Shown here: one piece after another, positions 34,076 to 57,064 of the stretch
How positions within the stretch are numbered: the first letter of the stretch is position 1
How the letters are laid out: every line of letters begins with the position of its first letter
DNA from: Cyanomargarita calcarea GSE-NOS-MK-12-04C
GTDB taxonomy: Bacteria; Cyanobacteriota; Cyanobacteriia; Cyanobacteriales; Nostocaceae
DNA: 64,000 bases
Assembly: GCA_019359595.1 (NCBI GenBank)
Contig: JAHHGZ010000029.1
Span: 253-64,252 of the forward strand
Direction: 5' to 3'
Position numbers and translations under genes: made by a program
The notes under the pieces: generated by a model
Seen by the model: the letters and a program-made list of their open reading frames with translations, nothing else
What the model was told of the DNA's origin: nothing
The model's database searches: none

Positions 34076-34122
34076 AAGTTTTGAAATATTTACTTGTTAG
34101 AAGATAAAAAGGACTTATAACA

Positions 34123-34467: not shown

Positions 34468-34630
34468 TAAATATCTTCTGAGAAAGATTGTGATCCCAAA
34501 ATATAATCGCAATTATAGGCTATTTCTTCATTTGACATCATGCTATTAAATAACTGTAAATATCGCGATTGAATTATTTTATTTAGCGATCGCCAGTAAT
34601 TTCCCCTCAAAAAACTTTGCTTTAAAAAAT

Positions 34631-40458: not shown

Positions 40459-41074
40459 TAAGTAGGTAGATTGACATAAATAAACTTAAAGTAAAATTTT
40501 GTTGATAGGGCGGGCAGGATACCAACTCCACAAGAGTGATATGAATATTGTGGGGTGAGGCTCTCTAGTCCGCCCATTTTATATTTAATCCAGAGGTTGA
40601 GCATTTTTCAGTCTCACTTGATGCCTGAGATAAGACTGAAGTTTTTTGTGGGATATTCAAGCTAATTGGAGTCCGACAATTGAAAAACAAATTATCGCAG
40701 AACTAAAGGAACCTGTTGCAGAGAAAGGGAAGAAAAATAAGCCAAAATCTACAGTTCAAGCTCTCTGTTTGTTTGTTGCAGGTATAGGATTGCTAAGTTT
40801 GGGTTTATGTATGCAGGCAAATGCGATGTTCCCAAGGGGAACCGCTACGCGATCGCGCAAGCTTTGCGAGAAGCAGCCAGAATTTCAGTACAACAAGCAA
40901 TTCCAAGTTTAAGTGATAAGTAAATAAGGTGAAACAACCGTAGAAAGCTTGCTTGGTTGCATACTTGTCGTCATAGGAGTGCATAAGTTGATTTTGCTTA
41001 CACCTATTGAGTATAGGAGGAAGTTGCAAGCAAGCTTAACTTCTGTCATTTCAATTACACTCGAAGAGGTGCAA

Positions 41075-41357
41075 GATCCCCGACTTCTTAAAGAATACCG
41101 CTGGTGAATCAGGGGTAAGACCCCTCCGAAACCCGTAATCCCACCGTCACCATATAATGGTGCGGCTAATTGAACAAAGCCCACAGTAAGGTGGGCTAAA
41201 TAAAGAATTTAGCCCACCTTACTGTGGGCTTTGTATCAATAGCCCCAGGCTTCTAGCCTACGGGCGGTTGTTGGGTATATGAGAGAACTGCTTGAATCAA
41301 TATTGAGGGGTTAGACCTACCATTCGCTCTTCTGTATCCTTTAAGAAGTAGGGGATC
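41075..41357. mobile_element. MITE-like element with 24-bp TIRs (GATCCCCGACTTCTTAAAGAATAC / GTATCCTTTAAGAAGTAGGGGATC) and a nested perfect 25-bp-stem palindrome
   Basis: The TIRs at 41075-41098 and 41334-41357 are reverse complements with 2 mismatches. The internal AAAGCCCACAGTAAGGTGGGCTAAA-taaagaa-TTTAGCCCACCTTACTGTGGGCTTT spans 41176-41232. The element is non-coding. Confidence 0.6.
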
Positions 41358-41514
41358 TGACCCTCACAAGTCGTCATAATTAATGTGGTGGAGTACTAAG
41401 TTCGACGGAAATAAACCGACCATCATAAATAGCACCGAAACCTTACTATATAATTCTTCTTTCTTGTTACTTTTGCCTTTTCACTTTTGCCTTATTCTAC
41501 TAGGGTGTTAATTT

Positions 41515-44500
41515 ATGGAAATATGGATAAATTTGGAGTTTGGTGACGGGAACTTTGAATGCGGATTTGCTAAAATCAATCTTAACGTAACGGTAGCAAA
41601 TGGACAGGAGAATATCACACAACAAGAAGTCCAACTACCTCCAAATACAGAAATTTCAGATTCCTATCAACGTTGGAAAGAGCAATACTATTCCTTACTA
41701 AACCATTCCAGAGGTGGTTTTAAAAATAACCAAGTTACTCATATATCCAAAATAGATTGTCATAGTTCTGCTCAGGGTTTATGCCGTCATCTTCATCAGT
41801 GGCTTCACCCTATTCAGTCACAATTAGAACAAGCACTCTCACAAGACTCTCAACCAGAAATTCGTTTATTTATCCACACAGAGAAAATTACCTGCCTCAC
41901 CACCAAAGACATCTTACATCGACTACCTTGGCAAGAATGGGGTTTTTTCGCTCAAAAGTTTTTCTGCGAAGCGGCTGTTTGTTTTCACTCTTTTGTTGCA
42001 AGTACTGCGACATCGAAAAAATTATCGACTTCTGGTAAAATTAGAAGAGCTAGGATTATCAGTATTTTTGGAGACAGTACAGATATTGATATCAGTGGAG
42101 ATAAAAAATTACTTGAAAAATTGAAGAAACGGTCGGCAGAACTCATCATTCTGACAGAACCAACTCGTTCTGATTTTAATATGCTCTGGGAAGAAGCCTG
42201 CGATATCCTATTTTTTGCCGGTCATAGCGAAACAAAAGGTGAGGGTCAAACAGGCATAATAAATATTAATCCCAATGATAGTTTAAGTTTAGCAGAAATC
42301 AAAAGAACATTGAAGGCAGCAATTAATAAAGGTTTAAAATTAGCAATTTTCAATTCCTGCGATGGTCTAGGTTTAGCAAAGCAATTAGCAGATTTAAACT
42401 TACCTTATATTATTGTTTGGCGGGAAGTTGTACCAGATAAATTAGCACAAAAGTTTCTCCAATATTTTTTAAGTTCTTTTTCCAAGGGTGAATCTTTATT
42501 TAATTCAGTCCGACAAGCAAGAGATAAGCTGAAAGAACTTGCAAACGACAAAGATATTGAGAAGCGGCTACCGGGGGTAAGTTGGTTGCCAATTATCTGT
42601 AAAAATACAACTGAGCTTGCACCGAGTTGGGAAGATTTAGGAGGGCTTTCTGGTGAACTTCCTCTTAGTCCCTACCAGGGTTTATCTGCGTTTCAAAAGG
42701 AAAATGCAGATTACTTTTTTGGTAGGGAGAAGTTTATTGCTAAGTTAGTAGAAGCAGCCAACAGCAACCCGTTAGTGCCTGTCATTGGTGCATCTGGGAG
42801 TGGAAAGTCGTCTGTAGTGTTTGCCGGGTTGATTCCCCGTTTACAAGCTACTGAGAATGCAGAGATAATCAATTTTCGACCGGGGAAAAATCCGTTTGAT
42901 GCAATGGCAGTGGCATTGAGCAAATATTGCCAGTCTGCGGTACTAGAATTTGAGGTCAACTTGCGACATGATGAGACAGTATTATGCCGTTTGATTGAAA
43001 ATATTGTTAATTCTTTAGGATATCAGCGTTTGGTGTTAGTAGCAGATCAGTTTGAAGAACTTTACACTCTTGCTGCTCAGGAAGAACGTCACAGTTTTTT
43101 AAGATCGCTGCTTTTGGCTGTAACATATGCTCGGTCGTTTACGCTGGTGCTAACATTGCGAGCAGATTTTTTGGGAATTGTGCTTGACGAGCAATCAATG
43201 GGAAAGGCTTTGCAACAATACCCCCCATTGTTACTGACTGCGATGGATAGGGAGGAATTGCGAGATGCGATCGAAAAACCAGCGTTAAAGATGAAGGTGG
43301 AACTGGAGGAGGGGTTAACAAGTAAACTAATTAATGATGTAGGCGATCGCCCTGGTCGTTTACCTCTTTTGGAGTTTGCCTTAACTCAACTGTGGTCGAA
43401 ACAGAAAAATTGGTATTTGACGCATCAAGCTTATGAAGAAATTGGCGGTTTAGAAAAAGCTTTAGCAAAACATGCTTCGGAAGTCTTAAAGCTGCTATCT
43501 GCCGTGAAAGAACAACAAGCAGAAAGGGTGTTTATTCAGTTAGTGCGTCCAGGGGAAGGGACGGAGGATACCAGACGTGTTGCGACTCGCAACGAGGTGA
43601 GGGAAGAAAATTGGGGTTTAGTCAAACATTTGGCTGATGAGCGTTTGGTGGTGACTGGGTGGGATGAAGTTAATGAAATAGAAACAGTAGAAATTGTCCA
43701 TGAAGCGTTGATTCGAGAATGGGGAACTCTGCGAGAGTGGATAACAGCTAACCGTGAGTTTCGCATTTGGCAAGAAAGGTTCAAGGAAGATGTGCGTGAC
43801 TGGGAAAATAGTAATCAAAACCCAGAAGCATTATTGCAAGGAACGCGCCTAGCTGTAGCAGAAGATTGGTATAATCACAGAGGAGATGAATTAACACCAC
43901 GAGCGCGAGATTTTATTACTGCTAGCATTACATGGCGGAAACAAGAGCAGCAAAAACAGAGGCACAGACGACAGCTAACTACTTTTGGGCTTACTGGTGT
44001 TTCGCTGGTAGCTTTGATGCTAGCTGGGGCCGCTTGGTGGCAATCGCAGAATGCCCAATTGAACGAAATCAAAGCTATTAGTGTATCAAGTAAAGCGCTT
44101 TTAACCTTGGAGCAAGATTTTGAAGCGCTGATAGAAAGTTTAAGGGCATCTAGAAAACTGAAAGAAACACCATCTGTTCTGATATTTCATAGATTTCAGG
44201 AAAAGGCTGATATCCAAAAGCAGATTGATATTTTATTACAAAATGCACTCTATAAAGTTACGGAACGCAATCGACTAGAAAAGCATAAAGATGAGGTTAC
44301 AGACGTTAGTTTCAGCCCCGACGGTAAGATAATTGCCACTGCAAGTAAAGACAAAACTGTCAAACTCTGGAGTTTGGATGGGGCTCAGATACAAACACTC
44401 AAAGGTCATAAAGATTGGGTGCGTAGTGTCCGTTTTAGCTCCACAGGGAAAACAATTGCCACAGCTAGTTGGGATGGAACTGTCAAACTTTGGACAACAG

Positions 44501-46137
44501 AAGGTAAATTAATGACTACTCTAACAGGGCATAATACAAAGGTTTATAGTGTGAGCTTTAGCCCTGACGGAAAGACAATTGCTAGCGCTGATGCCAAAGG
44601 ATATGTAAAAGTCTGGACTTTGGAAGGTAAATTCATCAAAACTTTCAAGGCACATGACCAGCCTGTCTTGAGCCTGAGTTTCAGTCCTGATGGTAATACT
44701 CTTGCCACTGCCAGTCAGGATAAAACTGTCAAACTCTGGAGCCGGAATGAGAAACTACTGCGAACCTTGACTGGACATAAAGATTGGGTTTGGAGCGTTA
44801 GTTTCAGCCCTGATAGTCAAAAAATTGCTACCGCTAGTAGGGATGAAACTGGGAAGCTCTGGAGCATTGAGGGAAAAGAGATAAAAACCCTAAAGGATGA
44901 TAAAAATTCGGTCACTAGCGTTAGTTTTAGTCCTGATGGAAAGCAAATTGTTACTGTCGGTGCTGACCAAACTATTAAAATCTGGGACGAATCTGGCCAG
45001 AAGCTCCAAACCCTGATGAGCGGACATAAAGATTGGATCTGGAGCGTCAGTTTCAGTCCTGACGGAAAGATGATGGCCACTGCTAGCAAGGATGGAACTG
45101 CAAAACTCTGGCAATTGAAAGGGAAAAAACATTACATTCAGCAGGCGCATAATGTTGCGATTTATTGCGTAAGTTTTAGCCCTGATGAAAAGGAATATGC
45201 CACCGCTAGTAAGGACAAAACTGTCAAACTTTGGAAGCGCTCAGGTGAATTAATTAAAACCCTTAAATTAGATAACAGTAGCAATGATACATGGTTTACT
45301 CACATCAGTTTTAGCCCTAATGGACAAAGAATTGCTACCGCTACTCAAGATGGCACTGTCATACTTTGGAATCGTCAAGGAGAGAAAATAAAAACTTTCC
45401 AAGGGCACAATAAAAAATGGATATGGCAAGTGAGTTTTAGCCCTGATGGCAACACTCTTGCCACTGCCGGTCATGACGGCATTGTCAAATTCTGGAACTT
45501 AGATGGTAAGCTAATCCAAAGTATTAAGGCACATACAAAAGGTAAAAATGAAGATGGGGAAGGGGCTAATAGCGTCAGTTTTAGTCCTGATGGCAAAATT
45601 ATCGCCACCGCTGGTTGGGACAAAACAGTCAAACTTTGGACAAGAGAAGGTAAACTAATCAAAACCCTTAGACAGCATCAAGATGGGGTTCATAGTGTCA
45701 GTTTCAGTCCCAACGGCAAGATGATTGCTAGTGCCAGTGAGGATAGAACTGTTAAACTTTGGACGCTTGAAGGTAAATTAATCACAACTCTCAAAGGCCA
45801 TGAAGCTGGAGTCTTCCGTGTCAAATTTAGTCCAGATAGCAAAACAATTGCTACTGGCAGTTTAGATAAGACTGTAAAACTCTGGAGTCTTGACGGTAAA
45901 GAACTGAAAACCTACAAAGGACATGGTGATTCTGTCATGAGCCTTAATTTCAGCCGTGATGGGAATCACCTGATCTCAGCCGATAAAGCCGGAAAAATTA
46001 TTATCTGGGATTTGGGATTAGACTCAAATCAACTACTGATTGATGGTTGCAATTGGGTAGGTGACTATCTGAAGAATAATCCCCAGGTGAGTGAGAGCGA
46101 TCGCACTTTGTGTCAGGGAATTGGAATTCAAAAGTGA
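41515..46137 (+). CDS. CHAT (caspase-like) protease - STAND/NACHT-type P-loop NTPase - TM - 14 x WD40 repeat protein
   Basis: 1540 aa. The CHAT His/Cys dyad context is FFAGHSETKGEGQ and AIFNSCDGLGLA. Walker A is VIGASGSGKSSVVFAG and Walker B is LVLVADQFEEL. A hydrophobic helix LTGVSLVALMLAGAAWW sits near residue 830. From about 900 onward there are 14 WD repeats (SFSPDGK..WD). Confidence 0.85.
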   Translation: MEIWINLEFGDGNFECGFAKINLNVTVANGQENITQQEVQLPPNTEISDSYQRWKEQYYSLLNHSRGGFKNNQVTHISKIDCHSSAQGLCRHLHQWLHPIQSQLEQALSQDSQPEIRLFIHTEKITCLTTKDILHRLPWQEWGFFAQKFFCEAAVCFHSFVASTATSKKLSTSGKIRRARIISIFGDSTDIDISGDKKLLEKLKKRSAELIILTEPTRSDFNMLWEEACDILFFAGHSETKGEGQTGIININPNDSLSLAEIKRTLKAAINKGLKLAIFNSCDGLGLAKQLADLNLPYIIVWREVVPDKLAQKFLQYFLSSFSKGESLFNSVRQARDKLKELANDKDIEKRLPGVSWLPIICKNTTELAPSWEDLGGLSGELPLSPYQGLSAFQKENADYFFGREKFIAKLVEAANSNPLVPVIGASGSGKSSVVFAGLIPRLQATENAEIINFRPGKNPFDAMAVALSKYCQSAVLEFEVNLRHDETVLCRLIENIVNSLGYQRLVLVADQFEELYTLAAQEERHSFLRSLLLAVTYARSFTLVLTLRADFLGIVLDEQSMGKALQQYPPLLLTAMDREELRDAIEKPALKMKVELEEGLTSKLINDVGDRPGRLPLLEFALTQLWSKQKNWYLTHQAYEEIGGLEKALAKHASEVLKLLSAVKEQQAERVFIQLVRPGEGTEDTRRVATRNEVREENWGLVKHLADERLVVTGWDEVNEIETVEIVHEALIREWGTLREWITANREFRIWQERFKEDVRDWENSNQNPEALLQGTRLAVAEDWYNHRGDELTPRARDFITASITWRKQEQQKQRHRRQLTTFGLTGVSLVALMLAGAAWWQSQNAQLNEIKAISVSSKALLTLEQDFEALIESLRASRKLKETPSVLIFHRFQEKADIQKQIDILLQNALYKVTERNRLEKHKDEVTDVSFSPDGKIIATASKDKTVKLWSLDGAQIQTLKGHKDWVRSVRFSSTGKTIATASWDGTVKLWTTEGKLMTTLTGHNTKVYSVSFSPDGKTIASADAKGYVKVWTLEGKFIKTFKAHDQPVLSLSFSPDGNTLATASQDKTVKLWSRNEKLLRTLTGHKDWVWSVSFSPDSQKIATASRDETGKLWSIEGKEIKTLKDDKNSVTSVSFSPDGKQIVTVGADQTIKIWDESGQKLQTLMSGHKDWIWSVSFSPDGKMMATASKDGTAKLWQLKGKKHYIQQAHNVAIYCVSFSPDEKEYATASKDKTVKLWKRSGELIKTLKLDNSSNDTWFTHISFSPNGQRIATATQDGTVILWNRQGEKIKTFQGHNKKWIWQVSFSPDGNTLATAGHDGIVKFWNLDGKLIQSIKAHTKGKNEDGEGANSVSFSPDGKIIATAGWDKTVKLWTREGKLIKTLRQHQDGVHSVSFSPNGKMIASASEDRTVKLWTLEGKLITTLKGHEAGVFRVKFSPDSKTIATGSLDKTVKLWSLDGKELKTYKGHGDSVMSLNFSRDGNHLISADKAGKIIIWDLGLDSNQLLIDGCNWVGDYLKNNPQVSESDRTLCQGIGIQK

Positions 46138-46184
46138 ACGACTAAAAGCACAAAAGAATTCTAATAATGCTGACAGTGTTTTCC

Positions 46185-46928
46185 CTAGTCAAAAGGAGTT
46201 TTGAATCCAGCAAATTCCCTTAAGTAGGCGAGAATAGAAGTGCCATTTTCATCTGTAGAACCCTGGTTACTCAGCAGCAGATTGGCAACCCCTCTTTCGC
46301 CACGCAGATGCGCCGCTGCCAGAATTCCGGATGGAGTGACGACTACTCCTCCTCGTTTTTGCCCAATAAATTCTTTTATTGAGCGTCCATTGAGTTGATT
46401 TTTGATCAAACCCCACTTGTATTGCATAGCTTCTTGAATAGCTATTTCTTGCACATTGTTCTTATTGTTCAGGAAATCTTGCTTGCTATTGATCCCATTT
46501 TTTCCTCTCCATGTACCGCGCCAATAATTCCTATCTACACCATTTCCTCCACCGATATAGGGATTAGGTGTATCGTAATAGCCAAGGTCTTTTAGCAAGG
46601 CTTCTCCGAATTGATACTTGCCTATAAAACCCAGCTGGTTCTCAATGTTAGTAGGTGGATTTTGTTGTCCTGTTTCCCTGCGTGCAAGTGCTGTAAAAAA
46701 GTCTTTGTAACTTCCCCTAACTCCAGATTTCTGCTTTGTTTGTGCGGTATCATCGCTTTTGTTGAAGATACTACTAGCGTAGCTAGATTCGGGTGGTAAA
46801 AATGATATTGTTAAAAGTGAACACGCCACTAGTCCAACAGCAGAAAGTTTATTAATTTTTCGTTTCAAGGATTTTGTTTTGAGCAATTGAGTCATGATAT
46901 TTGATGCAATGTAAGGTTTTAATTTCAT
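46185..46928 (-). CDS. hypothetical secreted protein (signal peptide; possible cell-wall-binding/muramidase-like)
   Basis: 247 aa with an N-terminal signal-like segment (LSAVGLVACSLLTISFL). The GFIGKYQFGEALLKDLGYY region is unassigned. Confidence 0.3.
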   Translation of the reverse strand: MKLKPYIASNIMTQLLKTKSLKRKINKLSAVGLVACSLLTISFLPPESSYASSIFNKSDDTAQTKQKSGVRGSYKDFFTALARRETGQQNPPTNIENQLGFIGKYQFGEALLKDLGYYDTPNPYIGGGNGVDRNYWRGTWRGKNGINSKQDFLNNKNNVQEIAIQEAMQYKWGLIKNQLNGRSIKEFIGQKRGGVVVTPSGILAAAHLRGERGVANLLLSNQGSTDENGTSILAYLREFAGFKTPFD

Positions 46929-46985
46929 CAGAATGTTTATTTGATTGTTAGCCCCAAAAATTTTAGGACTTGAACATTAACAGAG

Positions 46986-48446
46986 TTATTCAGATTCGCA
47001 CTGACTCAATTTTAAAGAGAGCGCTTCTATCCTATTCAATCCAAACCCGCCAAAACTTCCTACGATTTTTTTCAACAAGAAAATATTTCCGAAACGCCCT
47101 ACTGGTAGGTGTCCACGAGGAGCCTGATCAATATCGAATATGAGGTTTTTTCCGTACCATATTATTTCATACTTTTTGTGCCAGCCAACACGCTCTGCAA
47201 ACTGTTCATACATTTCCCAGTTAGGGTTAGGGTTTCCGCCAACAATTTCCTTCCAAATACGATTCTGGATACTAAAGCCGAAGCGTCCGTTACTGTATTT
47301 CACCCACAAATCATCAATTGTGAGTAAGATTTCGCACGGAAAATTTTTGAGGCTTTCGATGTCCAGGTAACCTTGTTTCACTCGCCCTGCCTGCTCAAGC
47401 ATAAGATTTACGGTTTCACGATCTGCACCCTTCCAATCTTTAACTTTGAGACACGCCAACAATACTGTGTATTTTTCATCTAATAAGTGAGGATTTAGTC
47501 GTGGACTTTTGAAGGCTTTCAGTACTTTATCTATTGAATGATAGCGTTTCCTGAAGTCGTGATATACCATTTTGTCTATAATATAAGCCAACTCATCGCT
47601 AACATTTATATCAGTCAAACCCTCGCCAATATTTATATCAGTCAAACTCTCGGTAATATTTATTTTAGTCAAACCCTCGTTAATATTTATTTTAGTCAAA
47701 CTCTTGCTAATATTTATATTTTTTCGCCAAATGAGTTCTCCTGTTGTAGAGTCTATTGGTATATTAATAATATCTCTGCCGGTTAAGGCTTGAATCCCAA
47801 TCATTCCTACTGCATAAATATCGCTGCAATAGTTTGCCTGACCCATGATTTGTTCAATTGGCATATAATCAGGAGTACCAACTACAGCTGATACGCTAGG
47901 TTGCCCTTTTGCATCGGATGTCAAAATACTAATTTGCTTAACTGCACCAAAGTCAATCACAACAATCTTGCCATCTTGTTTACGCCGCATTAAATTCTGC
48001 GGTTTAATATCTCGGTGGATAATGTTGTTGTCGTGAACAAATGCCAAGACTTCCAAAATATTCTTTAACAGTTCAACAACTGCTTGCTCATCCATCTGCT
48101 TGCCTGGAATAAGTTCTTCAGTCAAGTCATGCCCTTCAATAAATTCTTGAACTAAGTAGAATTCTCCATTTTCTTCAAAGTAGGCAAAAAGCTCAGGAAT
48201 TTGATCGTGTTGTTTCCCTAAATTCTGTAAACTTTTTGCTTCTCTATCAAAAAGCTTTTTTGCAATCTCCAAAACTTTAGGATCGCTGTCTTGAGGTTTT
48301 AAATGTTTAACGACACAAGGGCGTTCTGAGCTCAAATCTTTATCGATAGCACGATAAGTAATCCCAAACCCACCATTTCCCAAGAGTTCTTCAATACGAT
48401 AGCGTTCCTTAAGTGTTTTCCCAACTAAAGAGTTATTCTCTATCAT
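46986..48446 (-). CDS. Ser/Thr protein kinase with internal 8-aa tandem repeats and C-terminal GUN4-like domain
   Basis: 486 aa. The kinase has GNGGFGITY, HRDIKPQNL and DFG. A TKININEGLTKINITESLTDINIGEGLTDINVSDE linker follows. The C-terminal ~180 aa resemble GUN4-like domains fused to cyanobacterial kinases. Confidence 0.75.
   Translation of the reverse strand: MIENNSLVGKTLKERYRIEELLGNGGFGITYRAIDKDLSSERPCVVKHLKPQDSDPKVLEIAKKLFDREAKSLQNLGKQHDQIPELFAYFEENGEFYLVQEFIEGHDLTEELIPGKQMDEQAVVELLKNILEVLAFVHDNNIIHRDIKPQNLMRRKQDGKIVVIDFGAVKQISILTSDAKGQPSVSAVVGTPDYMPIEQIMGQANYCSDIYAVGMIGIQALTGRDIINIPIDSTTGELIWRKNINISKSLTKININEGLTKINITESLTDINIGEGLTDINVSDELAYIIDKMVYHDFRKRYHSIDKVLKAFKSPRLNPHLLDEKYTVLLACLKVKDWKGADRETVNLMLEQAGRVKQGYLDIESLKNFPCEILLTIDDLWVKYSNGRFGFSIQNRIWKEIVGGNPNPNWEMYEQFAERVGWHKKYEIIWYGKNLIFDIDQAPRGHLPVGRFGNIFLLKKIVGSFGGFGLNRIEALSLKLSQCESE
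47601..47715. repeat. 24-bp tandem repeat x ~4.5 inside the kinase CDS
   Basis: The units are AATATTTAT(A/T)T(C/T)AGTCAAAC(C/T)CT(C/T)G(C/G/T)(C/T), with successive units differing at 2-4 positions. They encode the 8-aa repeat block. Confidence 0.8.
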
Positions 48447-48524
48447 TTGGCTTCTTTCCTTGCTAGATTATTAACAATGTGTTTTTACAATCGCCGTCTC
48501 TTGTATTATGGTCTGTTTAGCTCT

Positions 48525-50420
48525 TTAAGTAGTAAGTAATTTGTCTAACTCTCGACTCATAGATGATTTTTCAGATACAAAACCAGTTGCAGAAAGTTTT
48601 TCTTTTAACTTACTCAAATATGTGATTATATTTATACGAATAATTTCGCCTTGCATATCTGGATAATCAGAATTCTCTGTAAACTCATCAATTTGTTTAA
48701 TCATTACACTGAGATTTCGACTAATTTCATTTTTTACCTCCACAGGAATTTCTTCTTTAATAACTATTGTTCTGAAAGCATCAAGCATTTTACGCAGATA
48801 AGAAATACCTCCATCACGATCTGGTTGACTTCTAAGAATTTCACCTGTAACTCTAGTTGCAGACCGACCACGCTGAATTTCAGAGAAATAACGTTTAAAA
48901 TTACCTATGCCATCTGTTGCTGAATAACCCTCAATGTCGATACTGGATGTACACTTTAGGGCATTTCTAAAAGCCGGATGAACAATAAAAACCTTATCTG
49001 TTTCTTCAACAGTTTTCGCATTCTGATAATAAAATACACTTTTATCTACACGTTCAACGCCAAGAAAACCTATTCCGTATAATATATTAAGTACAGTGTC
49101 AATATTCAAATAATTTTTATAATTACTATATCGTTCTTCTAATGCTGGAATTACACGTTCAAACACAATCTCAAAGCACTGCCTTGGAACCACATAACTT
49201 GTATTACTAAACAAAATTAGTAAATCATTTAAGAAGGGATAATTAATTATGTATTCGCCTATTAAATCATTAAGTTTCCAGTTTGAATAAGAATCAATTG
49301 CTTGTGTGATATGTTTACACTCAACGGTTATACTACCTTCACGTCGAGCTGTATCTACACATAAATTACACAGTTGAATAATCTCCCTTGGTCGCATTAG
49401 AGTGTAAGATAAAATAAAATCAGACGTTGTTTCAGTATTTATTTGCTGAGGAAAGTATTCTGACCAAAAACTATCAGATGTTAGATCCCTATTTTTTGTA
49501 GAAGCTTTGGCTCTCTCTAATATAATTTCAGGCAGTTTTTCAGAAGTCCAAGTAACGCTTACTTCATCACCGCGTAGTTTGTCCTTATCAAAAAACTGTA
49601 ATTGTTCATAAATGTCTGCTCTGAGAAATACAGTACAAAAAGCATTATCATAAATCTCGTTTATCTGCTTCGAGGCCATAAGTAAGCCTATGACCGTTTT
49701 GTCAGATGAAGTATCATTATCCCAAATTTCATCTACTTTATCTACTAAAATATAAAATTTATATTTCTGAAAAAATTTTAAAAGTTTTTCAAGATACTTT
49801 TCTAAAAAATCTAGTTTATAATCAAAATTTTTACCTTCATTAGTTTCATGATTAGTTTCTATTTCTGCTGATTGGTCAAAAGCTTTGAGCGTAATTTTTG
49901 TTTGAATTCTATTTATTATACTCCAGAACTTTTCTTGAAAATTGAGATCATCAACTTCATTATTTTCTACAAGAAAACTTCGTATTTTGTTTAGTGTATG
50001 AGATAAATCATTTTCGACTGACCAATCAGAATTATCTGAGCTTGATTCCCAATCATTGTGATTTCTTGCTACTTCAAGTAAAAATTTACAAATTTGTACT
50101 AAAAAAATATATTTCCAAATCAATTTTTTTGACTGTTGTTCATTAACGCCACTCATTTGAAATTGTCTGATTTCATCAGCAGAAATAGCATCAGGTGTAA
50201 CAAGGCATACATAAGTTTTTTCTTCTAAACTTAATTCTTTTTTTAGCATTAAACATAAAGCACTTTTACCTGACCCTTTTCTGCCAATAACTAATGATTT
50301 CTTACGCGATTTGATATCCTCGTATATTGTTGTTTTTAAAAAACTACCTTGCAAAAGTCCGCTACCTTTAAAATCTGTTTCAGCGTCATCTTTGCCAAAA
50401 TATAAACTCTGAATAGTCAT
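48525..50420 (-). CDS. P-loop NTPase of unknown function (KAP/AAA-like), in AT-rich island
   Basis: 631 aa with Walker A LVIGRKGSGKSALCLM at about residue 45 and Walker B YILVDKVDE at about residue 220. The C-terminal 400 aa are unassigned. GC content is conspicuously low. Confidence 0.55.
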   Translation of the reverse strand: MTIQSLYFGKDDAETDFKGSGLLQGSFLKTTIYEDIKSRKKSLVIGRKGSGKSALCLMLKKELSLEEKTYVCLVTPDAISADEIRQFQMSGVNEQQSKKLIWKYIFLVQICKFLLEVARNHNDWESSSDNSDWSVENDLSHTLNKIRSFLVENNEVDDLNFQEKFWSIINRIQTKITLKAFDQSAEIETNHETNEGKNFDYKLDFLEKYLEKLLKFFQKYKFYILVDKVDEIWDNDTSSDKTVIGLLMASKQINEIYDNAFCTVFLRADIYEQLQFFDKDKLRGDEVSVTWTSEKLPEIILERAKASTKNRDLTSDSFWSEYFPQQINTETTSDFILSYTLMRPREIIQLCNLCVDTARREGSITVECKHITQAIDSYSNWKLNDLIGEYIINYPFLNDLLILFSNTSYVVPRQCFEIVFERVIPALEERYSNYKNYLNIDTVLNILYGIGFLGVERVDKSVFYYQNAKTVEETDKVFIVHPAFRNALKCTSSIDIEGYSATDGIGNFKRYFSEIQRGRSATRVTGEILRSQPDRDGGISYLRKMLDAFRTIVIKEEIPVEVKNEISRNLSVMIKQIDEFTENSDYPDMQGEIIRINIITYLSKLKEKLSATGFVSEKSSMSRELDKLLTT

Positions 50421-50933
50421 ATAGTTACATCTTTAACCAATAGGTATAGAGAGATTGAATACTTGCGTAAAAATGGAATACCACCAGACGGAGTAGTTGG
50501 AACCAAAATGTACACATATTCCTAAGCAAAATTTTGCTTAGGAATATGTGTTCCTAAACAGGAGAAAGCAAGAAATTATATTGAGATTGTTCAGAAGGTA
50601 ATTGCTTGTTTTTCCTGCTTCTACTTTTATATAGGTTCAAGTCTAATTGACTTATACACTTCTATGATGCCAAGATAAAATTTGTGTTGCAAAAACTTGT
50701 CGAGGATAAAATATCTGGATGAGAAAGATATACTTATGCAGTAAATGCGACAAAAGGGAATAAAAAACCAAAATAATCAACCTTTCAATCAGCTTGATTT
50801 TCTGATTGTTTATTCTTTTGTGTCTGTTCTGTTTGAGGAGTCACTGCTGAGTTGCTCTACCATCGCTGTTTATTGTTATTCAAGCTGTAAGTACTGGCAA
50901 AAGTCTACTCTAGACTAAACACCATAAAAAAAA

Positions 50934-52040
50934 TTACAACAAAAATTCCTCAACAATCACAGCACCCTGAAAGCCGACTTCAACCTGAAATTGCTTCCCT
51001 ACAATCTCACTAAATTCTAACTGAATGAGATTATCAGCTTTCCTCGTAATAACTTCCTGACTTTCTGACTCAGAAGTATTAGGATTAAGAGTCACTTTCA
51101 ACTTCAACGCAGACGGTAGATATTCCTCATTATAAGGAATAACCTGTACAAGCACATCAACTTCATTATCTTCCAACCGTTTTACATTGATAACTAAAGC
51201 TAATTTTTGACCATTTAGTAATAGTCCAAAATCTAACTTTTTGACCCCACAATGATAATCAATTGACTTACTTCTTACAACACCCCAAGCATAGTTACTA
51301 TCAAGCGTCTTCAGCATATCCTTAGTGGATTGCCAACCTTCTTCAAAAACTCCAAGGCACCAACTGCTCACGTTGACTAACGCTTTATTAACGATGCTTG
51401 TACTCTGGCTTAGAGTTTGTATATCTGTACGATCAACCCCAACTACCGATGGTAAAGGAATAGCATCTGGTGACAAAAAAGACGAGTACAGCAATAGGTT
51501 ATTCACCTCAGAATCAAACCAAGAAAGTGGTAGCTGATAACAACTATCAGATTTAGCTTCCAAGTTAATTGATTGGCAATATTCAATTAATTTATCGTAA
51601 CGTAAAAAACCGTGGATGTTTAATTTTTCTTCCTCTTCTAATACCTCAAGCAATACATAAAAATGAGCAATCATTTTTGGAGAGTTGATGACTTCTTTTG
51701 GTACAGTCACAAAATCATCAATTAGGTTGTCAACACTAATTAAGCAAAGGCTGAATCCACCGACACTTAGATTCCAAACAACATTCATCGCATTAGCGCT
51801 ATCAGATTCAAATATCGAGCAGTTATCTCGATTAATTTTCACATCTGGAATTCTTTCTCTTAGCCATTCTTCAAAACCAAGTAGCGCTAGTGCATTTAAA
51901 TAAATTGTCCACTGGTTTGTTTCGCTTAAGTTTCGGTCGCTAATTTTTTTAGCTTCTTCAAAATGCTCCGATTCCAGCCAAATAACTTTTGCTGACAATT
52001 CTTGTCTCCAGTATCTTGAATAAACAGAGGTATTAGTCAT
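50934..52040 (-). CDS. DUF1822-like cyanobacterial protein (tentative)
   Basis: 368 aa. The N-terminal WLESEHFEEA..SETNQWTIYLNALALLGFEEWL pattern recalls the DUF1822 family from memory. It is AT-rich. Confidence 0.4.
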   Translation of the reverse strand: MTNTSVYSRYWRQELSAKVIWLESEHFEEAKKISDRNLSETNQWTIYLNALALLGFEEWLRERIPDVKINRDNCSIFESDSANAMNVVWNLSVGGFSLCLISVDNLIDDFVTVPKEVINSPKMIAHFYVLLEVLEEEEKLNIHGFLRYDKLIEYCQSINLEAKSDSCYQLPLSWFDSEVNNLLLYSSFLSPDAIPLPSVVGVDRTDIQTLSQSTSIVNKALVNVSSWCLGVFEEGWQSTKDMLKTLDSNYAWGVVRSKSIDYHCGVKKLDFGLLLNGQKLALVINVKRLEDNEVDVLVQVIPYNEEYLPSALKLKVTLNPNTSESESQEVITRKADNLIQLEFSEIVGKQFQVEVGFQGAVIVEEFLL

Positions 52041-52085
52041 ATCTTAGCTCATGGTTCTATAGAACGTTGCGAGAAAATAATTTGT

Positions 52086-53648
52086 TCATGCTGCCTTTTT
52101 GATTAAATCATTAAGATAGCGACGTGTCATTTTGGCAAATAAGCTATTTTTTTGCTGTTTTTTCCCGCTTAGGATTTCTGCGTGTGCATCGTTGAATGCT
52201 TTCTTCAAAGCATAACTTCTAATTTCATCAGCAACATTTTTTAGATAGTCTGGGTTACTAGAAATTGTAGTTACTCGATATTGTGTCGGCGATTTACAAA
52301 TTTTGTCAATAAATTTTTCTTCTGTGCGATACTGAACCCGATCGAGAAAATTTTCTAATTGAAATATTCGTCTAACTTTACACCAAGGTATCCCCCATAA
52401 TTTACCAATCTCCCCTAAAGACATATTCTTTTGATATAAAAGTTGCAAACCTTCATGAAATTGTTGGGCAAAACTTTTGTAACCTTTACTTTTTTTCAAT
52501 CCTTCAATTTTTTGGTAAGTAACTTCTGATATTGCTTGATATAAAACCTCTTCAAATAAGTCATGACAATCCTCTTTTAATTGGTTTAATTCAATCTCCT
52601 CTAAATCGGTGTCAACATAATAATCTAATTCTCGATTGGGAATATAATCATTAGTGGAGTTGTCATACACTTCTATAGGTATAGTTTTGGGACTACCTGT
52701 TCTCCTCGAAAGCGTATCCTGACGTAAGACTTCTGCAATTCTTTTGAGATGATAAATTAGTTTTATATGAGAACTCATGATATTTCGTTGTTGCAACAAA
52801 TCATGCATTTCCTGTAATTGGTTTAGCGTAGGTTCAGAACAACGTCCTTTTTCATCTGATTTGCGTCTGTCTCGACGATAGACTGCATGAAATACCTCTA
52901 AAATTTCCCTGTCTCCTTTTTCAAGATGCGATTCCAAGGAACGGGGAATATGTCCACATAGTAAGGCCCAGTCACTGGGAGTCCGTACCCCCAATTCCCA
53001 TAGAAATAACCTTAAATTTTGATTCTGTTGAGTTAGTCTCCAAGTCCAATTATCCAAGCTTTCATTGGAACTTAAGGTTGGATTAAATTTTCTTAAAATT
53101 TCAACGCTAAAAAACTCTCCTCCTTTAGGTATTGGTCGAGTTGTATCATCTTGATTCAAGATAAGTTGAGTTTGACCTTCACTATCCAACAGTATCTGTT
53201 CTTTACCATCATCATTTAAAACGAATGGAAGCAAATCAATATAGCTAAAAGGGTTCTCAATTTCTTTTTTACAGGTGTGAGGAATTTTTTTGCAGCTAAT
53301 GAGAATCGTCTGAGATACATAGCATCTCAAACAAAGTCCAGCAGAAGCACGATCACGCATATCGGAAGCTGAACAAAAAATCTTCCACACAACAGCTTGA
53401 ATATGCCTGTTTTCTTCTGACGATAGTGTGGGTTGGCTGGCTAGCTGGGGGAATTGTATACTGAAGAACTCCTGTGCTAGGCGGATTGTCCTGGATTTGT
53501 AGCCATCTTTTAGCTTATTGTCTACCACCCTAGGAGAATCAATTATCCACATTATCCAGTATCTTGACGATGCTACCATAGGTTTTAAAATTACCTCGCT
53601 TCTCATCAGACATGACATCAACAGCGAACCTATTTCACCAGAAACCAT
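52086..53648 (-). CDS. hypothetical protein with sigma-70 region-4-like HTH near C-terminus
   Basis: 520 aa. MSLGEIGKLWGIPWCKVRRIFQLE resembles the region-4 HTH (TLEEIG..GVTRERIRQIE). The rest is unassigned, the start is ambiguous (several Met in the first 25 aa) and it is AT-rich. Confidence 0.35.
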   Translation of the reverse strand: MVSGEIGSLLMSCLMRSEVILKPMVASSRYWIMWIIDSPRVVDNKLKDGYKSRTIRLAQEFFSIQFPQLASQPTLSSEENRHIQAVVWKIFCSASDMRDRASAGLCLRCYVSQTILISCKKIPHTCKKEIENPFSYIDLLPFVLNDDGKEQILLDSEGQTQLILNQDDTTRPIPKGGEFFSVEILRKFNPTLSSNESLDNWTWRLTQQNQNLRLFLWELGVRTPSDWALLCGHIPRSLESHLEKGDREILEVFHAVYRRDRRKSDEKGRCSEPTLNQLQEMHDLLQQRNIMSSHIKLIYHLKRIAEVLRQDTLSRRTGSPKTIPIEVYDNSTNDYIPNRELDYYVDTDLEEIELNQLKEDCHDLFEEVLYQAISEVTYQKIEGLKKSKGYKSFAQQFHEGLQLLYQKNMSLGEIGKLWGIPWCKVRRIFQLENFLDRVQYRTEEKFIDKICKSPTQYRVTTISSNPDYLKNVADEIRSYALKKAFNDAHAEILSGKKQQKNSLFAKMTRRYLNDLIKKAA

Positions 53649-54295
53649 TTTTTCTCAATGTTCTGGAGAGCTACATATATATAGTGTTTGGTTTTGTGAA
53701 CTTATACACTTTGAGTCGAATGGCACTCTTGTTGAGCCCTGAAATTGGTGCAAGATATCAGCCTAGTAGCGGGCGCGGCGATCGCGGAGCGTAAAATATG
53801 AAAATAACACATTTTTTTTGTAACCCTTGCTATATATGGATTGTGGAATGTGTTAGTTAGGAGTTAAAACGGACTCAGTACAAGGATTTGAGACAATCAC
53901 GGGTGTCACCCCTGAGTTAATTGACCCACAGCATCATTTATTTCTGGGCTTGTTGGAATTAATGCAAGATGTAATTTTAAATGAGCTGAAACCTCTGTCT
54001 TAGCTAGCTTTAGTAGACCTCAATGTCCAGCCTCACGTAAAAAATTTAGCTAACACAACCCACATAAAGTGCATAAGTCTATTCGACTTGAAACTATTTA
54101 TAAGTAGAAGCAGGAAAAACAAGCAATTATCTTAAGCTTCTCGTTCTGCTCAAAAGAATAGCTCAAATTCTAGCTTTTCTGTCAGACTGGCTGATTTTAG
54201 AATCCGGGAAACCAGTAGTGGAGACGTATTGCCAATTTTTGGAGATGTTGAATTTTTTTCCTTTTGATTACCTAATATTCTACCACATTAATTTT

Positions 54296-54397
54296 GAGAG
54301 GTAAAGACAACAGAACTAAATCCCCCGTGACCCCTATGTTGGGGGTACTATGTTCAACTTTGAATTTTATCCTCCCCCAGAATTGGGGCAGGGGGGC
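54296..54397. repeat. dispersed short repeat, family A copy
   Basis: GTAAAGACAACAGAACTAAATCC ... ATGTTCAACTTTGAATTTTATCCTCCCCCAGAATTGGGGCAGGGGGGC shares both ends with 18175-18304. Confidence 0.7.
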
Positions 54398-54504
54398 TTC
54401 CGAGTCGGGAAAGAGCGCATAACTAATATGGTCGTCCACTAGTTTTCAGACTAATTGCTAGCTTAATCGCTTCTAGAATTTCTCAACTTAAAAGGTTTTC
54501 AACG

Positions 54505-54912
54505 ATGAATCGTAACTTTATCTATCGCATTGTAGAACTGACTAATGCTCAACGTCGTCAGGTCGGTTTGCCAGACCTAAGATTTAACCCTGTGTTAGCA
54601 GCAGCGGCACAGAAACATAGTGCAGACATGGCATTGGAGGATTTTTTCAATCATAAAAGCCCAAATGGAAGCAAGCCTTCGGATCGTGCCCAAGCTGAAG
54701 GATATCCATCAACATATGTCGGTGAAAACATCTATGCAGGTGGTTCCACCCCAGAAAATGCTTTTGAAGGATGGATGAAGAGTGAAGGACATCGTAATAA
54801 CATCCTGAGTCCAAATTATCAAGACATTGGAGTTGGTTACTATTTTCTAGGGAACGATACGGGTAATGTTAATTACAACCATTACTGGACACAATGCTTT
54901 GGCAAACCCTAA
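54505..54912 (+). CDS. CAP/SCP/PR-1-like domain protein
   Basis: 135 aa with HSADMALEDFFNH, GENIYAG and GHRNNIL..IGVGYY, the conserved CAP motifs. No signal peptide is evident. Confidence 0.8.
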   Translation: MNRNFIYRIVELTNAQRRQVGLPDLRFNPVLAAAAQKHSADMALEDFFNHKSPNGSKPSDRAQAEGYPSTYVGENIYAGGSTPENAFEGWMKSEGHRNNILSPNYQDIGVGYYFLGNDTGNVNYNHYWTQCFGKP

Positions 54913-54973
54913 TCAAAGAATTTAGTTGAATTTAACCAAATCACCCCTTTTCTACATTTTAGAGGTTATTACC

Positions 54974-55384
54974 ATGAGCCAAGAATTTATCAATCGTGTT
55001 GTAGAACTCACTAACGTCGAACGTCAGAGAGCAGGTTTACCACCACTGAAATTCAATGGTCGGTTAGCTGTAGCCGCTCAAAAGCACAGTGTAGACATGG
55101 CAATGCGCGACTTTTTCAATCACAAAGGAGAAGATGGTTCATCCCCATTTGACCGTATTAAAGCTACAGGCTATCGATACTCCCGTGCAGCAGAAAACAT
55201 TTCAGCAGGCAACTCTACCCCAGAAGATTCCGTCAAGGGATGGATGAACAGCCAAGGACATCGCAAAAACATTCTGACTCCAGATTATAAGGAAATTGGG
55301 GTTGGTTATTATTTTCTAGGTAATGATACGGGCGACGTTAATTACAAACACTACTGGACACAAGTTTTTGGTACACCTTTGTAA
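54974..55384 (+). CDS. CAP/SCP/PR-1-like domain protein (tandem paralogue)
   Basis: The track ORF opens at 54926, but AGAGGT is followed by ATG at 54974 (MSQEFINRVVELTNVERQRAGL). It is about 55% identical to the upstream CAP protein. Confidence 0.8.
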   Translation: MSQEFINRVVELTNVERQRAGLPPLKFNGRLAVAAQKHSVDMAMRDFFNHKGEDGSSPFDRIKATGYRYSRAAENISAGNSTPEDSVKGWMNSQGHRKNILTPDYKEIGVGYYFLGNDTGDVNYKHYWTQVFGTPL

Positions 55385-55432
55385 TTTGCATTGTCACGGC
55401 AATTCTAGAATTTCATTTTTTGGAGTTCATTT

Positions 55433-55978
55433 ATGTCTTGTACAGTCGGTAATTCATACATTGTCAAGTCGGGAGATACGCTTTTTATCATTGCCCAACA
55501 ACAATTAGGTGATGGTAACCGTTGGCGTGAAATCAAAAAACCAGATGGCACTTCATTTACAGACCAAGACGCTTCTAATTTGCTTGTTGGTCAGGAAATT
55601 TGCATTCCTGGGTCTATTTCTCCACCTCCTCCCTCCGGGAACCAAATCAAGCTAGAAGCCAGATTTTATAGCATGGAAGAAACAAGGTGTCACACACCAG
55701 CCTCTGGTGTACATGGAGTGACCTTGCGGGCAGCGCTTGCAGGTCAATGGCAGTCACAATGTCAAGGTCAAAGCGTTGGACGTTTGCAGTGTGCAGTAGA
55801 CCCAAATGTTATTCCTCTGTTAACAAATTTTACCTTGATGCTTTGGGATGGTAGGCAAGTTCCCGCAGCAGCCTTAGATATAGGTACGGCAATTCTAGGT
55901 AAGAAGATTGATATCTTCGTTGATACCGTTCAAGAAGCGATCAATTTAGGTGTACAGCCTGTTACAGCAATTTTGTAA
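55433..55978 (+). CDS. LysM + 3D (MltA/YabE-like) domain protein
   Basis: 181 aa. The N-terminal LysM is [26 protein letters not shown]. The C-terminus (VDPNVIPLLTNFTLMLWDGRQVPAAALDIGTAILGKKIDIFVDT) resembles 3D domains. Confidence 0.6.
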   Translation: MSCTVGNSYIVKSGDTLFIIAQQQLGDGNRWREIKKPDGTSFTDQDASNLLVGQEICIPGSISPPPPSGNQIKLEARFYSMEETRCHTPASGVHGVTLRAALAGQWQSQCQGQSVGRLQCAVDPNVIPLLTNFTLMLWDGRQVPAAALDIGTAILGKKIDIFVDTVQEAINLGVQPVTAIL

Positions 55979-56140
55979 AAAGTAAATCCCCATAAATTTA
56001 GGGGCTTTTAACCCTTTTTATTTCTTCTTTCTTTTACCTTCTTACAAAGTTAGGCGGGACGGAAACCGACACCGCCTACTTTGCGCTTCTTACTTTTTAC
56101 TTTTGCCTTGTTCAGTAATTTCATTTTTTGGAGTTGATTT

Positions 56141-57064
56141 ATGTCTTGTACAGTTGGTAATTCATACATTGTCAAGTCGGGAGACACGCTTTTTATCATT
56201 GCCCAACAACAATTAGGTGATGGTAACCGTTGGCGTGAAATCAAAAAAACAGATGGTACTCCCTACACAGATGCAGATGCCGCGAATTTACAGGTAGGTC
56301 AGGAAATCTGCATTCCGAACGGGTCCACTCCCCCTCCCCCAACGGGCAATGGTTTCGCGAGTATTGTGTCACGCCAAAGCTACGAAGCCATGTTCCCAAA
56401 CCGTAACGGTCTGTACACCTACGACGGTCTAGTGGCCGCAACACAAAAATACCCAAGCTTCTGCAATGAAGGATCTGACGTGCAACGCAAGCGTGAAGCA
56501 GCTGCTTTTTTAGCAAACATTGCCCACGAAACCACTGGTGGTTGGGATGCTGCTCCTGGTGGACGTTATGCTTGGGGTCTGCACTTTATTGAAGAGCAGA
56601 AACCCCAAGGCATATACTGCGATTCGTCGAATAGTACCTATCCCTGCAAACCCGGCAAATCCTATCACGGTCGCGGCCCTATCCAACTTTCGTGGAACTA
56701 CAACTATGGTCAAGTGGGTCAAGCTTTGGGCCTCGATCTGCTCTCCAACCCTGACCTGGTGAAGTCCGATAGTGCGATCGCCTTCCAAACTGCCTTGTGG
56801 TTCTGGATGACCCCCCAGCAACCCAAGCCTTCTTGTCATGCGGTGATGACTGGTAAATGGACACCTTCTGGCGATGATGCGAGCAAGGGACGTGCGCCTG
56901 GTTTTGGCATGACCATTAATATTATCAACGGTGGTCTTGAATGTGGCATGGGCACCCCTCCTGCCGTGACGGATAGGGTTGGCTTTTACAATCATTTCAC
57001 CCAATTGTTGGGTGTGAACGCGGGCGATAACCTCTACTGCGATCGCATGGGTCCCTACCGCTAA
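56141..57064 (+). CDS. LysM + glycoside hydrolase family 19 chitinase
   Basis: 307 aa with GH19 signatures [12 protein letters not shown] and [14 protein letters not shown]. The N-terminal LysM is nearly identical at nucleotide level to the previous gene. Confidence 0.9.

Follow-up and report, generated by a model that had tools for sequence, protein, structure and literature searches.

Do three adjacent, AT-rich genes on the same strand form one functional module? This question is raised by a locus of Cyanomargarita calcarea GSE-NOS-MK-12-04C, in a 64-kb stretch of contig JAHHGZ010000029.1 (64,000 nucleotides; here called the window), where a P-loop ATPase, a DUF1822 protein and a 520-aa protein, here named X520, are encoded side by side on the minus strand (Table 1). 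A first-pass annotation, made from the sequence alone, had located these three reading frames, the kinase gene on one side and the spacer of about 850 bp with a repeat on the other, all of which we confirmed, and had read the three genes as a candidate for an undescribed, horizontally acquired defence or addiction island. Based on comparison with related loci, we propose that X520 and DUF1822 belong together with a more distant gene for a CHAT-nSTAND1-WD40 protein (CHAT gene) in a conserved core system, that an unrelated, mobile ATPase has entered a variable slot of this system, and that X520 may act as a sigma-like regulator of genes carrying a shared promoter-like motif. As a whole, this is the explanation that we favor, with a probability of about 0.6.

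X520 and DUF1822 are conserved together with a CHAT-STAND-WD40 gene

An alignment of 16 X520 homologues was used in a genome scan to collect 80 X520 loci with flanks of up to 10 kb, and the window proteins were run against these loci by tblastn. The count of X520/DUF1822 pairs refers to the 77 loci with a full-length X520, and that of CHAT genes to the 38 loci whose flanks measure at least 8 kb on either side. Homologues of X520 number 757; all are from cyanobacteria, and almost all carry the annotation "hypothetical." In 70 of the 77 loci, the gene directly after X520, in the same orientation, encodes DUF1822 (median gap about 78 nt; 45 nt in the window), and 33 of the 38 full-flank loci have a CHAT homologue no more than 10 kb from X520, in varying orientation and at varying distance. 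Several genomes carry two or three copies of the pair (three in Scytonema NIES-4073, three in Mastigocoleus BC008). Co-occurrence elsewhere had been named beforehand as the refuting test for the three genes as one module, and the Sll1717-type ATPase was detected in none of the 80 X520 loci and is absent from the closest relative described below. The protein kinase with a GUN4 domain (kinase-GUN4) that is encoded next to the ATPase was likewise detected in 0 of 80.

The core system is therefore made of X520 and DUF1822, presumably co-transcribed, and of the convergent CHAT-nSTAND1-WD40 protein. The CHAT gene, third conserved member of the system, sits about 5 kb away, outside the interval of the first-pass annotation. 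Its nucleotide sequence is 93% identical to that of L087, a metagenome contig of the Joint Genome Institute (JGI) carrying the closest X520 relative (97% identical), where the CHAT gene adjoins DUF1822. The N-terminal 170 aa of the CHAT protein are kept along with the CHAT domain across loci (20-88% identity), consistent with a constant module, and represent a candidate EACC2 domain.

By its gene content, the core system appears to match the neighbourhoods of EACC2-caspase, extracytoplasmic function (ECF) sigma and DUF1822 genes reported by Kaur, Iyer, Burroughs and Aravind (eLife 2021; PMC8195603). That article describes a constant EACC2 and caspase domain with a variable C-terminus that includes STAND NTPases, predicts such neighbourhoods to be conflict or immunity systems of multicellular bacteria, and proposes that the sigma factor mediates the transcriptional output. 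The idea of an undescribed module is thus lost, as the pair belongs to these neighbourhoods and the ATPase family has already been named by NCBI. No experimental test of caspase-STAND/sigma/DUF1822 neighbourhoods was found in the literature searched, where they are known as a computational prediction.

An ATPase segment in a variable slot of the core system

In L087, the gene order is GH19, 3D, CAP, CAP, X520, DUF1822 and, on the opposite strand to this pair, CHAT-STAND-WD40, with 260 bp separating DUF1822 from the CHAT gene. Aligned by blastn, L087 matches the window over 41409-46139 (93% identity) and 50915-53709 (97.5%), and the 4.8 kb in between (46140-50914) have no counterpart there. This extra segment contains a 247-aa open reading frame (ORF) named p247, the kinase-GUN4 gene, the ATPase gene and a 513-bp spacer; its junctions are placed 2 nt past the CHAT stop codon and 19 nt past the DUF1822 stop codon. 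No target-site duplications were seen at its edges, and L087 carries an unrelated filler of 255 bp. Between DUF1822 and the CHAT gene, Hassallia (L088) has a GH16 gene with small ORFs, and Scytonema and Stigonema (L003 and L004) have a 181-aa ORF, so that this position is a variable, cargo-type slot. We regard it as very likely that the locus is a composite of the core system and an unrelated inserted ATPase segment.

The ATPase bears Walker A (GRKGSGKS) and Walker B motifs, and its residues 8-488 cover positions 1-454 of 454 of the Sll1717-family profile NF047389. The first-pass annotation had proposed a KAP/AAA-like NTPase; the P-loop ATPase stands, and the KAP identity was discarded, as no PF07693 match was found at E<=1. 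Weak Pfam matches point to ORC-CDC6-like, nSTAND1 and AAA_22, and a search of the ATPase profile against PDB sequences returned designed coiled coils only. The model NF053860 of the anti-phage gene DS-41 matches residues 31-394 with 52.7 bits (E 3.3e-14; the cut-off of 370 is not reached), which indicates a distant relative of DS-41 and not a member.

Family members (at least 783, with 33-40% full-length identity) come from Cyanobacteria, Actinomadura, Streptomyces, Dactylosporangium and Alphaproteobacteria; we know of no defence phenotype for the Sll1717 family. Transposases or integrases adjoin the gene in three of five other loci. In one of them, it is surrounded by IS91, ISL3 and DDE transposases; in another (L090/L091, Nostocaceae metagenome contigs with a 72%-identical homologue), its neighbours are ParA, ParE/RHH, a tyrosine integrase and a ResT/TelK telomere resolvase, suggesting carriage on a linear plasmid or linear plasmid-prophage; in the third, an integrase adjoins. 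The remaining contexts are ordinary chromosomal surroundings. The gene is AT-richer than its flanks in all five (for example, 0.356 vs 0.590). Because of the mobile-element contexts and of this AT-richness everywhere, the ATPase is considered a stand-alone, horizontally mobile gene. A recurrent pairing of ATPase and kinase was also considered and rejected, since a kinase adjoins in one other locus only (L085) and is divergent there.

The base composition was compared among 41 genes of the window, whose GC content is 0.407. The ATPase gene is the lowest of all, both in GC (0.306, z -2.45) and in GC at third codon positions (GC3; 0.19, z -2.9, vs 0.30 for the X520/DUF1822 pair). DUF1822 (0.361) and X520 (0.364) are about 1.2 standard deviations under the window mean, with five other genes as low or lower. 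As the pair has a lower GC than its flanks in 59 of 62 loci (median difference -4.5 points), its low GC is a family trait and no sign of recent acquisition here. The marked low GC and the horizontal acquisition that had been claimed for all three genes therefore hold for the ATPase and not for the pair, and recent acquisition is well supported for the ATPase only. In addition, the three genes do not form one tight operon, because the 513-bp gap between the ATPase and DUF1822 carries a promoter-like element and a terminator-like perfect 40-nt palindrome.

A bipartite promoter-like motif at the core system

The promoter-like element belongs to a shared bipartite motif, AAGTGTATA(A/G)G (AAGTGTATARG)-N14/15-CTATATATA, whose strict pattern has exactly three sites in the window, against 0.21 expected by chance. 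Sites of class A are located ahead of X520 in nearly all Nostocales loci, with an A-rich spacer that is not conserved, and a variant (TGCATAAG...CATCTATTTAT) occurs in more distant clades. Sites of class B, with the consensus AAGTGTATAGGTyGATTrGACTTGAACTTATATAAAAGTAGAAGCAGGA, are divergent from X520 or just 3' of DUF1822 and always face a gene. In the window, two class B copies form a 67-nt inverted repeat (50595-50661 / 54067-54133, arms 90% complementary) that brackets X520/DUF1822. The motif part of the first (50626-50661) scores 28.5 bits with a position weight matrix (PWM) trained on class A only and 32.9 bits with one trained on all sites; that of the second covers 54067-54102, and CAP genes likewise follow the syntenic copy of L087, L088 and L001. 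The weak variant ahead of the CHAT gene combines a good -35-like box with a poor -10-like one and recurs before the CHAT genes of L003, L067 and L087.

More specifically, the two-box PWM trained on class A gave 90 hits of at least 16 bits in 1.49 Mb (both strands), compared with a single one in controls of reversed sequence; class B sites are picked up with 16-28 bits, and ATPase-only loci have no hits. Leaving aside those ahead of X520, the hits reach a tenfold higher density within 1 kb of the X520/DUF1822 pair than at greater distances. The genes behind the hits include five EACC2/CHAT-type genes, CAP genes, p247 homologues and many genes for small proteins whose N-termini resemble signal peptides, as well as genes for a Nif11-leader bacteriocin precursor, a C39-like peptidase, a beta/gamma-crystallin-like protein and a dynamin-like GTPase. 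When metagenomes were scanned motif-first for strict class B sites, only two loci came up, a number that does not allow statistics; both have X520 and DUF1822 beside the motif.

A conserved bipartite element of fixed spacing, ahead of the operon of a sigma gene and of its neighbours, is the classical signature of autoregulated alternative sigma factors such as the ECF sigmas. We infer from this pattern that X520 may recognise the motif and that the genes bearing it may be under sigma-driven control. An NtcA-type site (GTA-N8-TAC) was considered as the identity of the motif and rejected, since the 3' half does not fit (several sites, compared by eye). No mention of the motif was found in the literature searched, including the sections of Kaur et al. 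(PMC8195603) consulted.

The plus-strand class B copy faces the putative output genes of this locus (Table 1), and genes for a thaumatin, a GH18 protein and an astacin+LysM protein come after the GH19 chitinase, up to 60981 on the plus strand. The CAP/chitinase cluster is syntenic in L087, in L088, which adds a GH17 gene, and in L001. The output is called lineage-variable because CAP genes are present in only a handful of the 80 X520 loci. On the sequence pattern, the CAP/chitinase/thaumatin cluster may be under the control of the motif.

Between the minus-strand class B element and the start codon of the ATPase lies the 40-nt palindrome (50512-50551), which has no second copy in the window and none in any of the fetched loci; as a single copy it is ruled out as a dispersed repeat, and it could be a terminator, an attenuator or an operator. 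The 206-nt leader before the ATPase is unusually structured (folding z -6.1), and the sole match in an Rfam scan of 46-56 kb was a spurious microRNA on the palindrome.

The transcribed-side leader of class B, GTAGAAGCAGGAnAAACAAGCAATTA, is almost invariant across genera (window 50545-50625, minus strand; L002, L013, L016, L019 and L018). It can pair with a downstream complement (GGAnAAACAAGCAA / TTGCTTGTTTTCTCC), with one compensatory pair in five sequences, and may be an RNA-level regulatory hairpin or a small RNA. Tandem class B-like arrays were observed in Capilliphycus (L012, 9215-9543; five copies with 72-nt spacing, ahead of a gene for a C39/AvrRpt2-like cysteine peptidase) and in Microseira (L062, 5782-6207; five copies with 97-nt spacing).

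The predicted fold of X520 resembles sigma factors

The window X520 protein has no match in Pfam, NCBIfam or PADLOC; by the sequence models Sigma70_r2 and Sigma70_r4 it fails as a member of the sigma-70 family. Among 16 relatives, most of the family beginning at the equivalent of M24, Sigma70_r4 is the commonest weak Pfam match (3 of 16, E 0.022 or weaker), one relative matches YlxM, and JGI names two relatives YlxM. We obtained an AlphaFold2 model from the 16-sequence alignment (mean predicted local distance difference test score 77.8) and compared it with PDB by Foldseek. The top four matches were sigma factors (SigB twice, sigmaS and sigmaA), the best with E 0.025 and probability 0.96, spanning 359-407 alignment columns; the rest had E > 1.6. 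Judging from the model, X520 is best described as a divergent sigma-70-family-like protein, and the stretch SLGEIAK.W.I.W.KARRIF (about residues 397-430) reads like the helix-turn-helix (HTH) of region 4.2. The first-pass annotation had seen a sigma-region-4 HTH at the end of the protein; structure comparison points to the sigma-like fold, the HTH is not at the very end, and its sequence matches are weak. The X520 profile found nothing meaningful among PDB sequences (best, a DeoR-type HTH, E 0.16), and its hhalign comparison with a two-sequence ECF sigma profile gave a probability of 0.1, which is uninformative because the profile is too thin.

The DUF1822 assignment of the first-pass annotation was confirmed over the full length of the protein. 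Its AlphaFold2 model combines an alpha/beta part with a C-terminal beta-sandwich and is not of the tetratricopeptide repeat (TPR) type, in disagreement with the label "TPR protein" in PMC8195603. In the literature searched, no more than two papers name the DUF1822 family. Weak matches of the model to restriction-endonuclease folds (Hjc, D212 and I-Ssp6803I) were also noted.

A possible sigma cascade and competing explanations

How might the core system work? We suggest a sigma cascade, a mechanism to which we give somewhat less than even odds. The STAND-WD40 part would sense a trigger and oligomerise, and the CHAT protease, once activated, would free or activate X520; its most plausible target is DUF1822 or X520 itself. 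X520 would then steer RNA polymerase to AAGTGTATA(A/G)G-N14/15-CTATATATA promoters. With the motif ahead of its own operon, X520 would be autoregulated, the class A site driving X520-DUF1822, and its targets would also include CHAT genes and variable output genes, mostly for small secreted proteins. In this genome, the output sites would be those ahead of the CAP-CAP-LysM/3D-GH19 chitinase cluster and of the inserted segment, where the minus-strand class B copy (50626-50661) would serve the ATPase, the kinase-GUN4 gene and p247. The simplest history would be that the ATPase, perhaps with the kinase, inserted between an output promoter and p247. Most likely the ATPase would work alone, in a defence-type role, as an NTP-dependent switch of ORC/Cdc6-like or STAND-like type, and the class B copy ahead of it may have linked it to X520.

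Several observations weigh against this explanation. The motif is AT-rich, unlike classical ECF promoters, and another regulator could bind it; class B also keeps its spacer and leader and could be a small mobile or RNA-level element. All loci were gathered around X520, save the two motif-first ones, which bears on the genome-wide specificity of the motif. Whether transcripts read through into the ATPase is uncertain, because the palindrome and the structured leader lie behind the class B copy. Finally, the ATPase scores far under the cut-off for DS-41, and no effector domain can be recognised in it.

The first-pass view, in which ATPase, DUF1822 and sigma-like protein are one defence or addiction module, acquired and working as a unit, would fit the adjacency of the three genes, their common strand, their GC under the window mean in each case and, in this genome, the class B promoter-like copy ahead of the ATPase. 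We find this view highly improbable, given that the ATPase is missing from the 80 related loci and from the 97%-identical relative L087, that its homologues stand alone in unrelated contexts (of mobile-element type in three of five), that GC3 differs between ATPase and pair, and that the gap with the terminator-like palindrome parts them. The general idea of a conflict- or defence-type accessory region survives without the proposed three-gene unit. Alternatively, X520 and DUF1822 could be no conflict or immunity system but a regulatory pair of the ordinary chromosomal kind in filamentous cyanobacteria, such as a sigma factor for development or stress with its partner, and the CHAT gene and the secreted enzymes would be members of the regulon or mere neighbours. 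The pair is indeed common among Nostocales and further filamentous cyanobacteria, where it is vertically conserved (757 and 241 homologues); PADLOC has no match for either protein, and the output genes encode mostly secreted proteins rather than classical anti-phage effectors. We nevertheless judge an ordinary pair to be unlikely, in view of the paralogous copies within genomes, the variable neighbours and cargo slot, the consistent linkage to a caspase-STAND-WD40 protein resembling the nucleotide-binding leucine-rich repeat (NLR) proteins, and the GC content systematically under that of the flanks. Such paralogy, variable neighbourhood, NLR-like linkage and low GC are traits of conflict systems as argued in PMC8195603.

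The 67-nt element itself could be something other than an X520-dependent promoter: a small mobile repeat, a recombination substrate (inverting, for example, the X520-DUF1822 segment), the site of another regulator or the 5' end of a small RNA. Its two window copies are inverted and bracket the pair, the spacer and the leader of about 25 nt are as conserved as the two boxes, the leader can form a hairpin, and tandem arrays exist in L012 and L062. We doubt these possibilities, since the boxes and their spacing are common to the X520-upstream sites, whose spacer is unrelated, a PWM trained on those sites alone recovers the class B copies, the element always faces a downstream gene, and just three copies are present in 64 kb, all at the module. 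The invertible segment in particular was rejected: L087, L088 and L001 have a single copy and the same orientation of X520 relative to CAP, with no sign of inversion. In L003, a copy of the element and the remnant of a CAP gene are found 3' of DUF1822, which speaks more for duplication or rearrangement than for a switch.

Beyond the sigma cascade that we prefer, a bolder version can be formulated, which we consider improbable. X520 would be the transcriptional output arm of an NLR-like immune pathway, in which a triggered CHAT-STAND-WD40 protein cuts X520 free from DUF1822 and so switches on AAGTGTATARG-N14/15-CTATATATA promoters for a lineage-variable secreted arsenal and for captured defence genes such as the Sll1717-type ATPase. 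The arsenal would consist here of CAP (PR-1-like), GH19 and GH18 chitinases, thaumatin and astacin, and elsewhere of bacteriocin-like peptides. Such a pathway would be the prokaryotic counterpart of NLR-induced expression of pathogenesis-related (PR) proteins in plants, directed against fungi and grazers as much as against phages.

Relation to known systems

The EACC2-caspase systems of PMC8195603 share with the window a neighbourhood of sigma-like and DUF1822 genes in multicellular cyanobacteria. That article gives the association in one sentence, with DUF1822 as a TPR protein, whereas our model predicts an alpha/beta fold with a beta-sandwich; a promoter motif, output genes and a cargo slot were found in none of its sections consulted. 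A further difference is that the three genes of the core system are split in the window by the 4.8-kb insertion.

Compared with pairs of ECF (group 4) sigma and anti-sigma factors under regulated proteolysis, the locus likewise has a sigma-like gene presumably co-transcribed with a partner, an associated protease gene, and a conserved bipartite motif ahead of the sigma gene's operon and of putative target genes. It differs in the length of X520 (about 500 aa instead of about 180-200) and in that X520 passes neither the Sigma70_r2 nor the Sigma70_r4 model; the boxes are AT-rich (TGTATA / TATATA) rather than the usual AAC / CGT. Furthermore, DUF1822 resembles no known anti-sigma domain, and the place of a membrane protease of the site-1/site-2 type is taken by a caspase-like STAND protein of the cytoplasm.

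For the ATPase, the nearest described system is DS-41 ("AAA2"), a single E. coli gene for a P-loop protein of about 500 aa, validated as anti-phage in DefensePredictor (Science 2026; PMC13092281). The window ATPase is also encoded by a stand-alone P-loop NTPase gene, and the alignment spans the NTPase and the region that follows; it is longer (631 aa) and belongs to another named family (Sll1717, NF047389).

The likeness to plant NLR-induced PR proteins is an analogy only. An NLR-like STAND/WD40 sensor gene lies beside genes for secreted proteins, among them CAP (PR-1-like), GH19 chitinase (PR-3-like), thaumatin (PR-5-like) and GH18 (PR-8-like), and a shared promoter-like element precedes the first of them. 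This CAP/chitinase link is confined to L001, L010, L037 and L087-L089; at other loci, the output genes encode other small secreted proteins.

The predicted system to which two of the three genes belong and the NCBI-named ATPase family were already known; added here are the promoter motif, the cargo slot and a connection with secreted proteins of PR-like type. The bipartite motif offers a testable handle that ties the sigma-like gene, the caspase-STAND gene and the variable secreted-protein genes together; with it, the regulon can be predicted from sequence, and activation of the NLR-like sensor could be followed with reporter fusions. The locus also illustrates how a cargo slot, behind a promoter copy, can receive a mobile, stand-alone ATPase with a validated defence gene as a distant relative, and how adjacency and low GC can suggest a module that co-occurrence does not support.

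Features of the locus and additional observations

Table 1. Positions of the genes and motif sites discussed, in window coordinates.
Feature	Position	Strand	Evidence or remark
Weak motif variant GAGTGCATAAGTTGATTTTGCTTACACCTAT	40972-41012	+	About 500 nt upstream of CHAT; nhmmer E 0.13; PWM 12 bits
CHAT-nSTAND1-WD40 gene, 1540 aa	41515-46137	+	Pfam CHAT 7e-8, nSTAND1 8e-29, WD40 repeats
p247, 247-aa ORF, N-terminal hydrophobic segment	46185-46928	-	tblastn matches in about 9 X520 loci
Ser/Thr protein kinase + 9-aa repeats + GUN4	46986-48446	-	Pkinase 2.5e-39, GUN4 4.5e-35
P-loop ATPase, Sll1717 family, 631 aa	48525-50420	-	NF047389 323.4 bits vs cut-off 75
Perfect 40-nt palindrome + T-tract (minus strand)	50512-50551		Between class B element and ATPase start codon
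Class B element AAGTGTATAAGT-N15-CTATATAAA + conserved leader GTAGAAGCAGGAAAAACAAGCAATTACC	50595-50661	-	Faces ATPase; nhmmer E 3.6e-10
DUF1822 (PF08852), 368 aa	50934-52040	-	Pfam E 4.5e-48, profile positions 1-369 of 370
X520, divergent sigma-70-family-like (predicted), 520 aa	52086-53648	-	Fold matches; weak r4 matches in relatives
Class A motif AAGTGTATAAGT-N15-CTATATATA	53676-53711	-	28 nt upstream of X520 ATG; PWM 34.6 bits
Class B element, second 67-nt repeat arm	54067-54133	+	Faces CAP genes; 24.8 bits
Putative output genes: CAP, CAP, LysM+3D, LysM+GH19 chitinase	54505-57064	+	Pfam; synteny with L087, L088, L001

p247 has no Pfam, NCBIfam or PADLOC match. A homologue is located directly behind a class B motif in L018 and L027, and p247 is, from these sequence matches, a probable recurrent neighbour or output gene of the X520 system in other genomes. 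On a Rivularia contig (JBHJOU010000990.1; L029/L030), p247 homologues lie between two inverted copies of the X520 region, a palindromic arrangement that may be an assembly artefact or a real inverted duplication.

The kinase-GUN4 protein matches PD-T4-6 of PADLOC (E 3e-115) over its catalytic domain only (residues 11-252), leaving the C-terminal repeats and GUN4 uncovered. Generic Hanks kinases match PD-T4-6 models, and we take this match as probably of that generic type and not as evidence of that defence system. Between the kinase and GUN4 domains, at least four tandem 27-nt repeats (47581-47719) encode the 9-aa repeats (INI-S/T-E-S/G-LT-K/D).

In the 500-nt stretch between the weak motif copy and the CHAT start, a long hairpin was observed at 41180-41230 (cccacagtaaggtgggctaa...ttagcccaccttactgtgggc). 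It may be an inserted small repeat, which would account for the long leader in comparison with L003 (198 nt).

The spacer upstream of X520 measures 856 bp (53649-54504) and bears one copy of the 67-nt element together with a dispersed repeat at 54300-54388. By blastn, this repeat, about 90-115 nt long and with hairpin arms rich in G and in C, has a second, intergenic copy at 18179-18294; it is probably the "family-A repeat" of the first-pass annotation and has no relation to the 67-nt element. The G/C-rich hairpin sequences of the spacer are single copy at up to 3 mismatches.

A second low-GC stretch was noted at 33001-36000 (0.33-0.36), where the gene at 33434-34075 has a GC of 0.324 (z -2.1); a SpoIIE-type phosphatase gene (34631-36634) is located in or near it.

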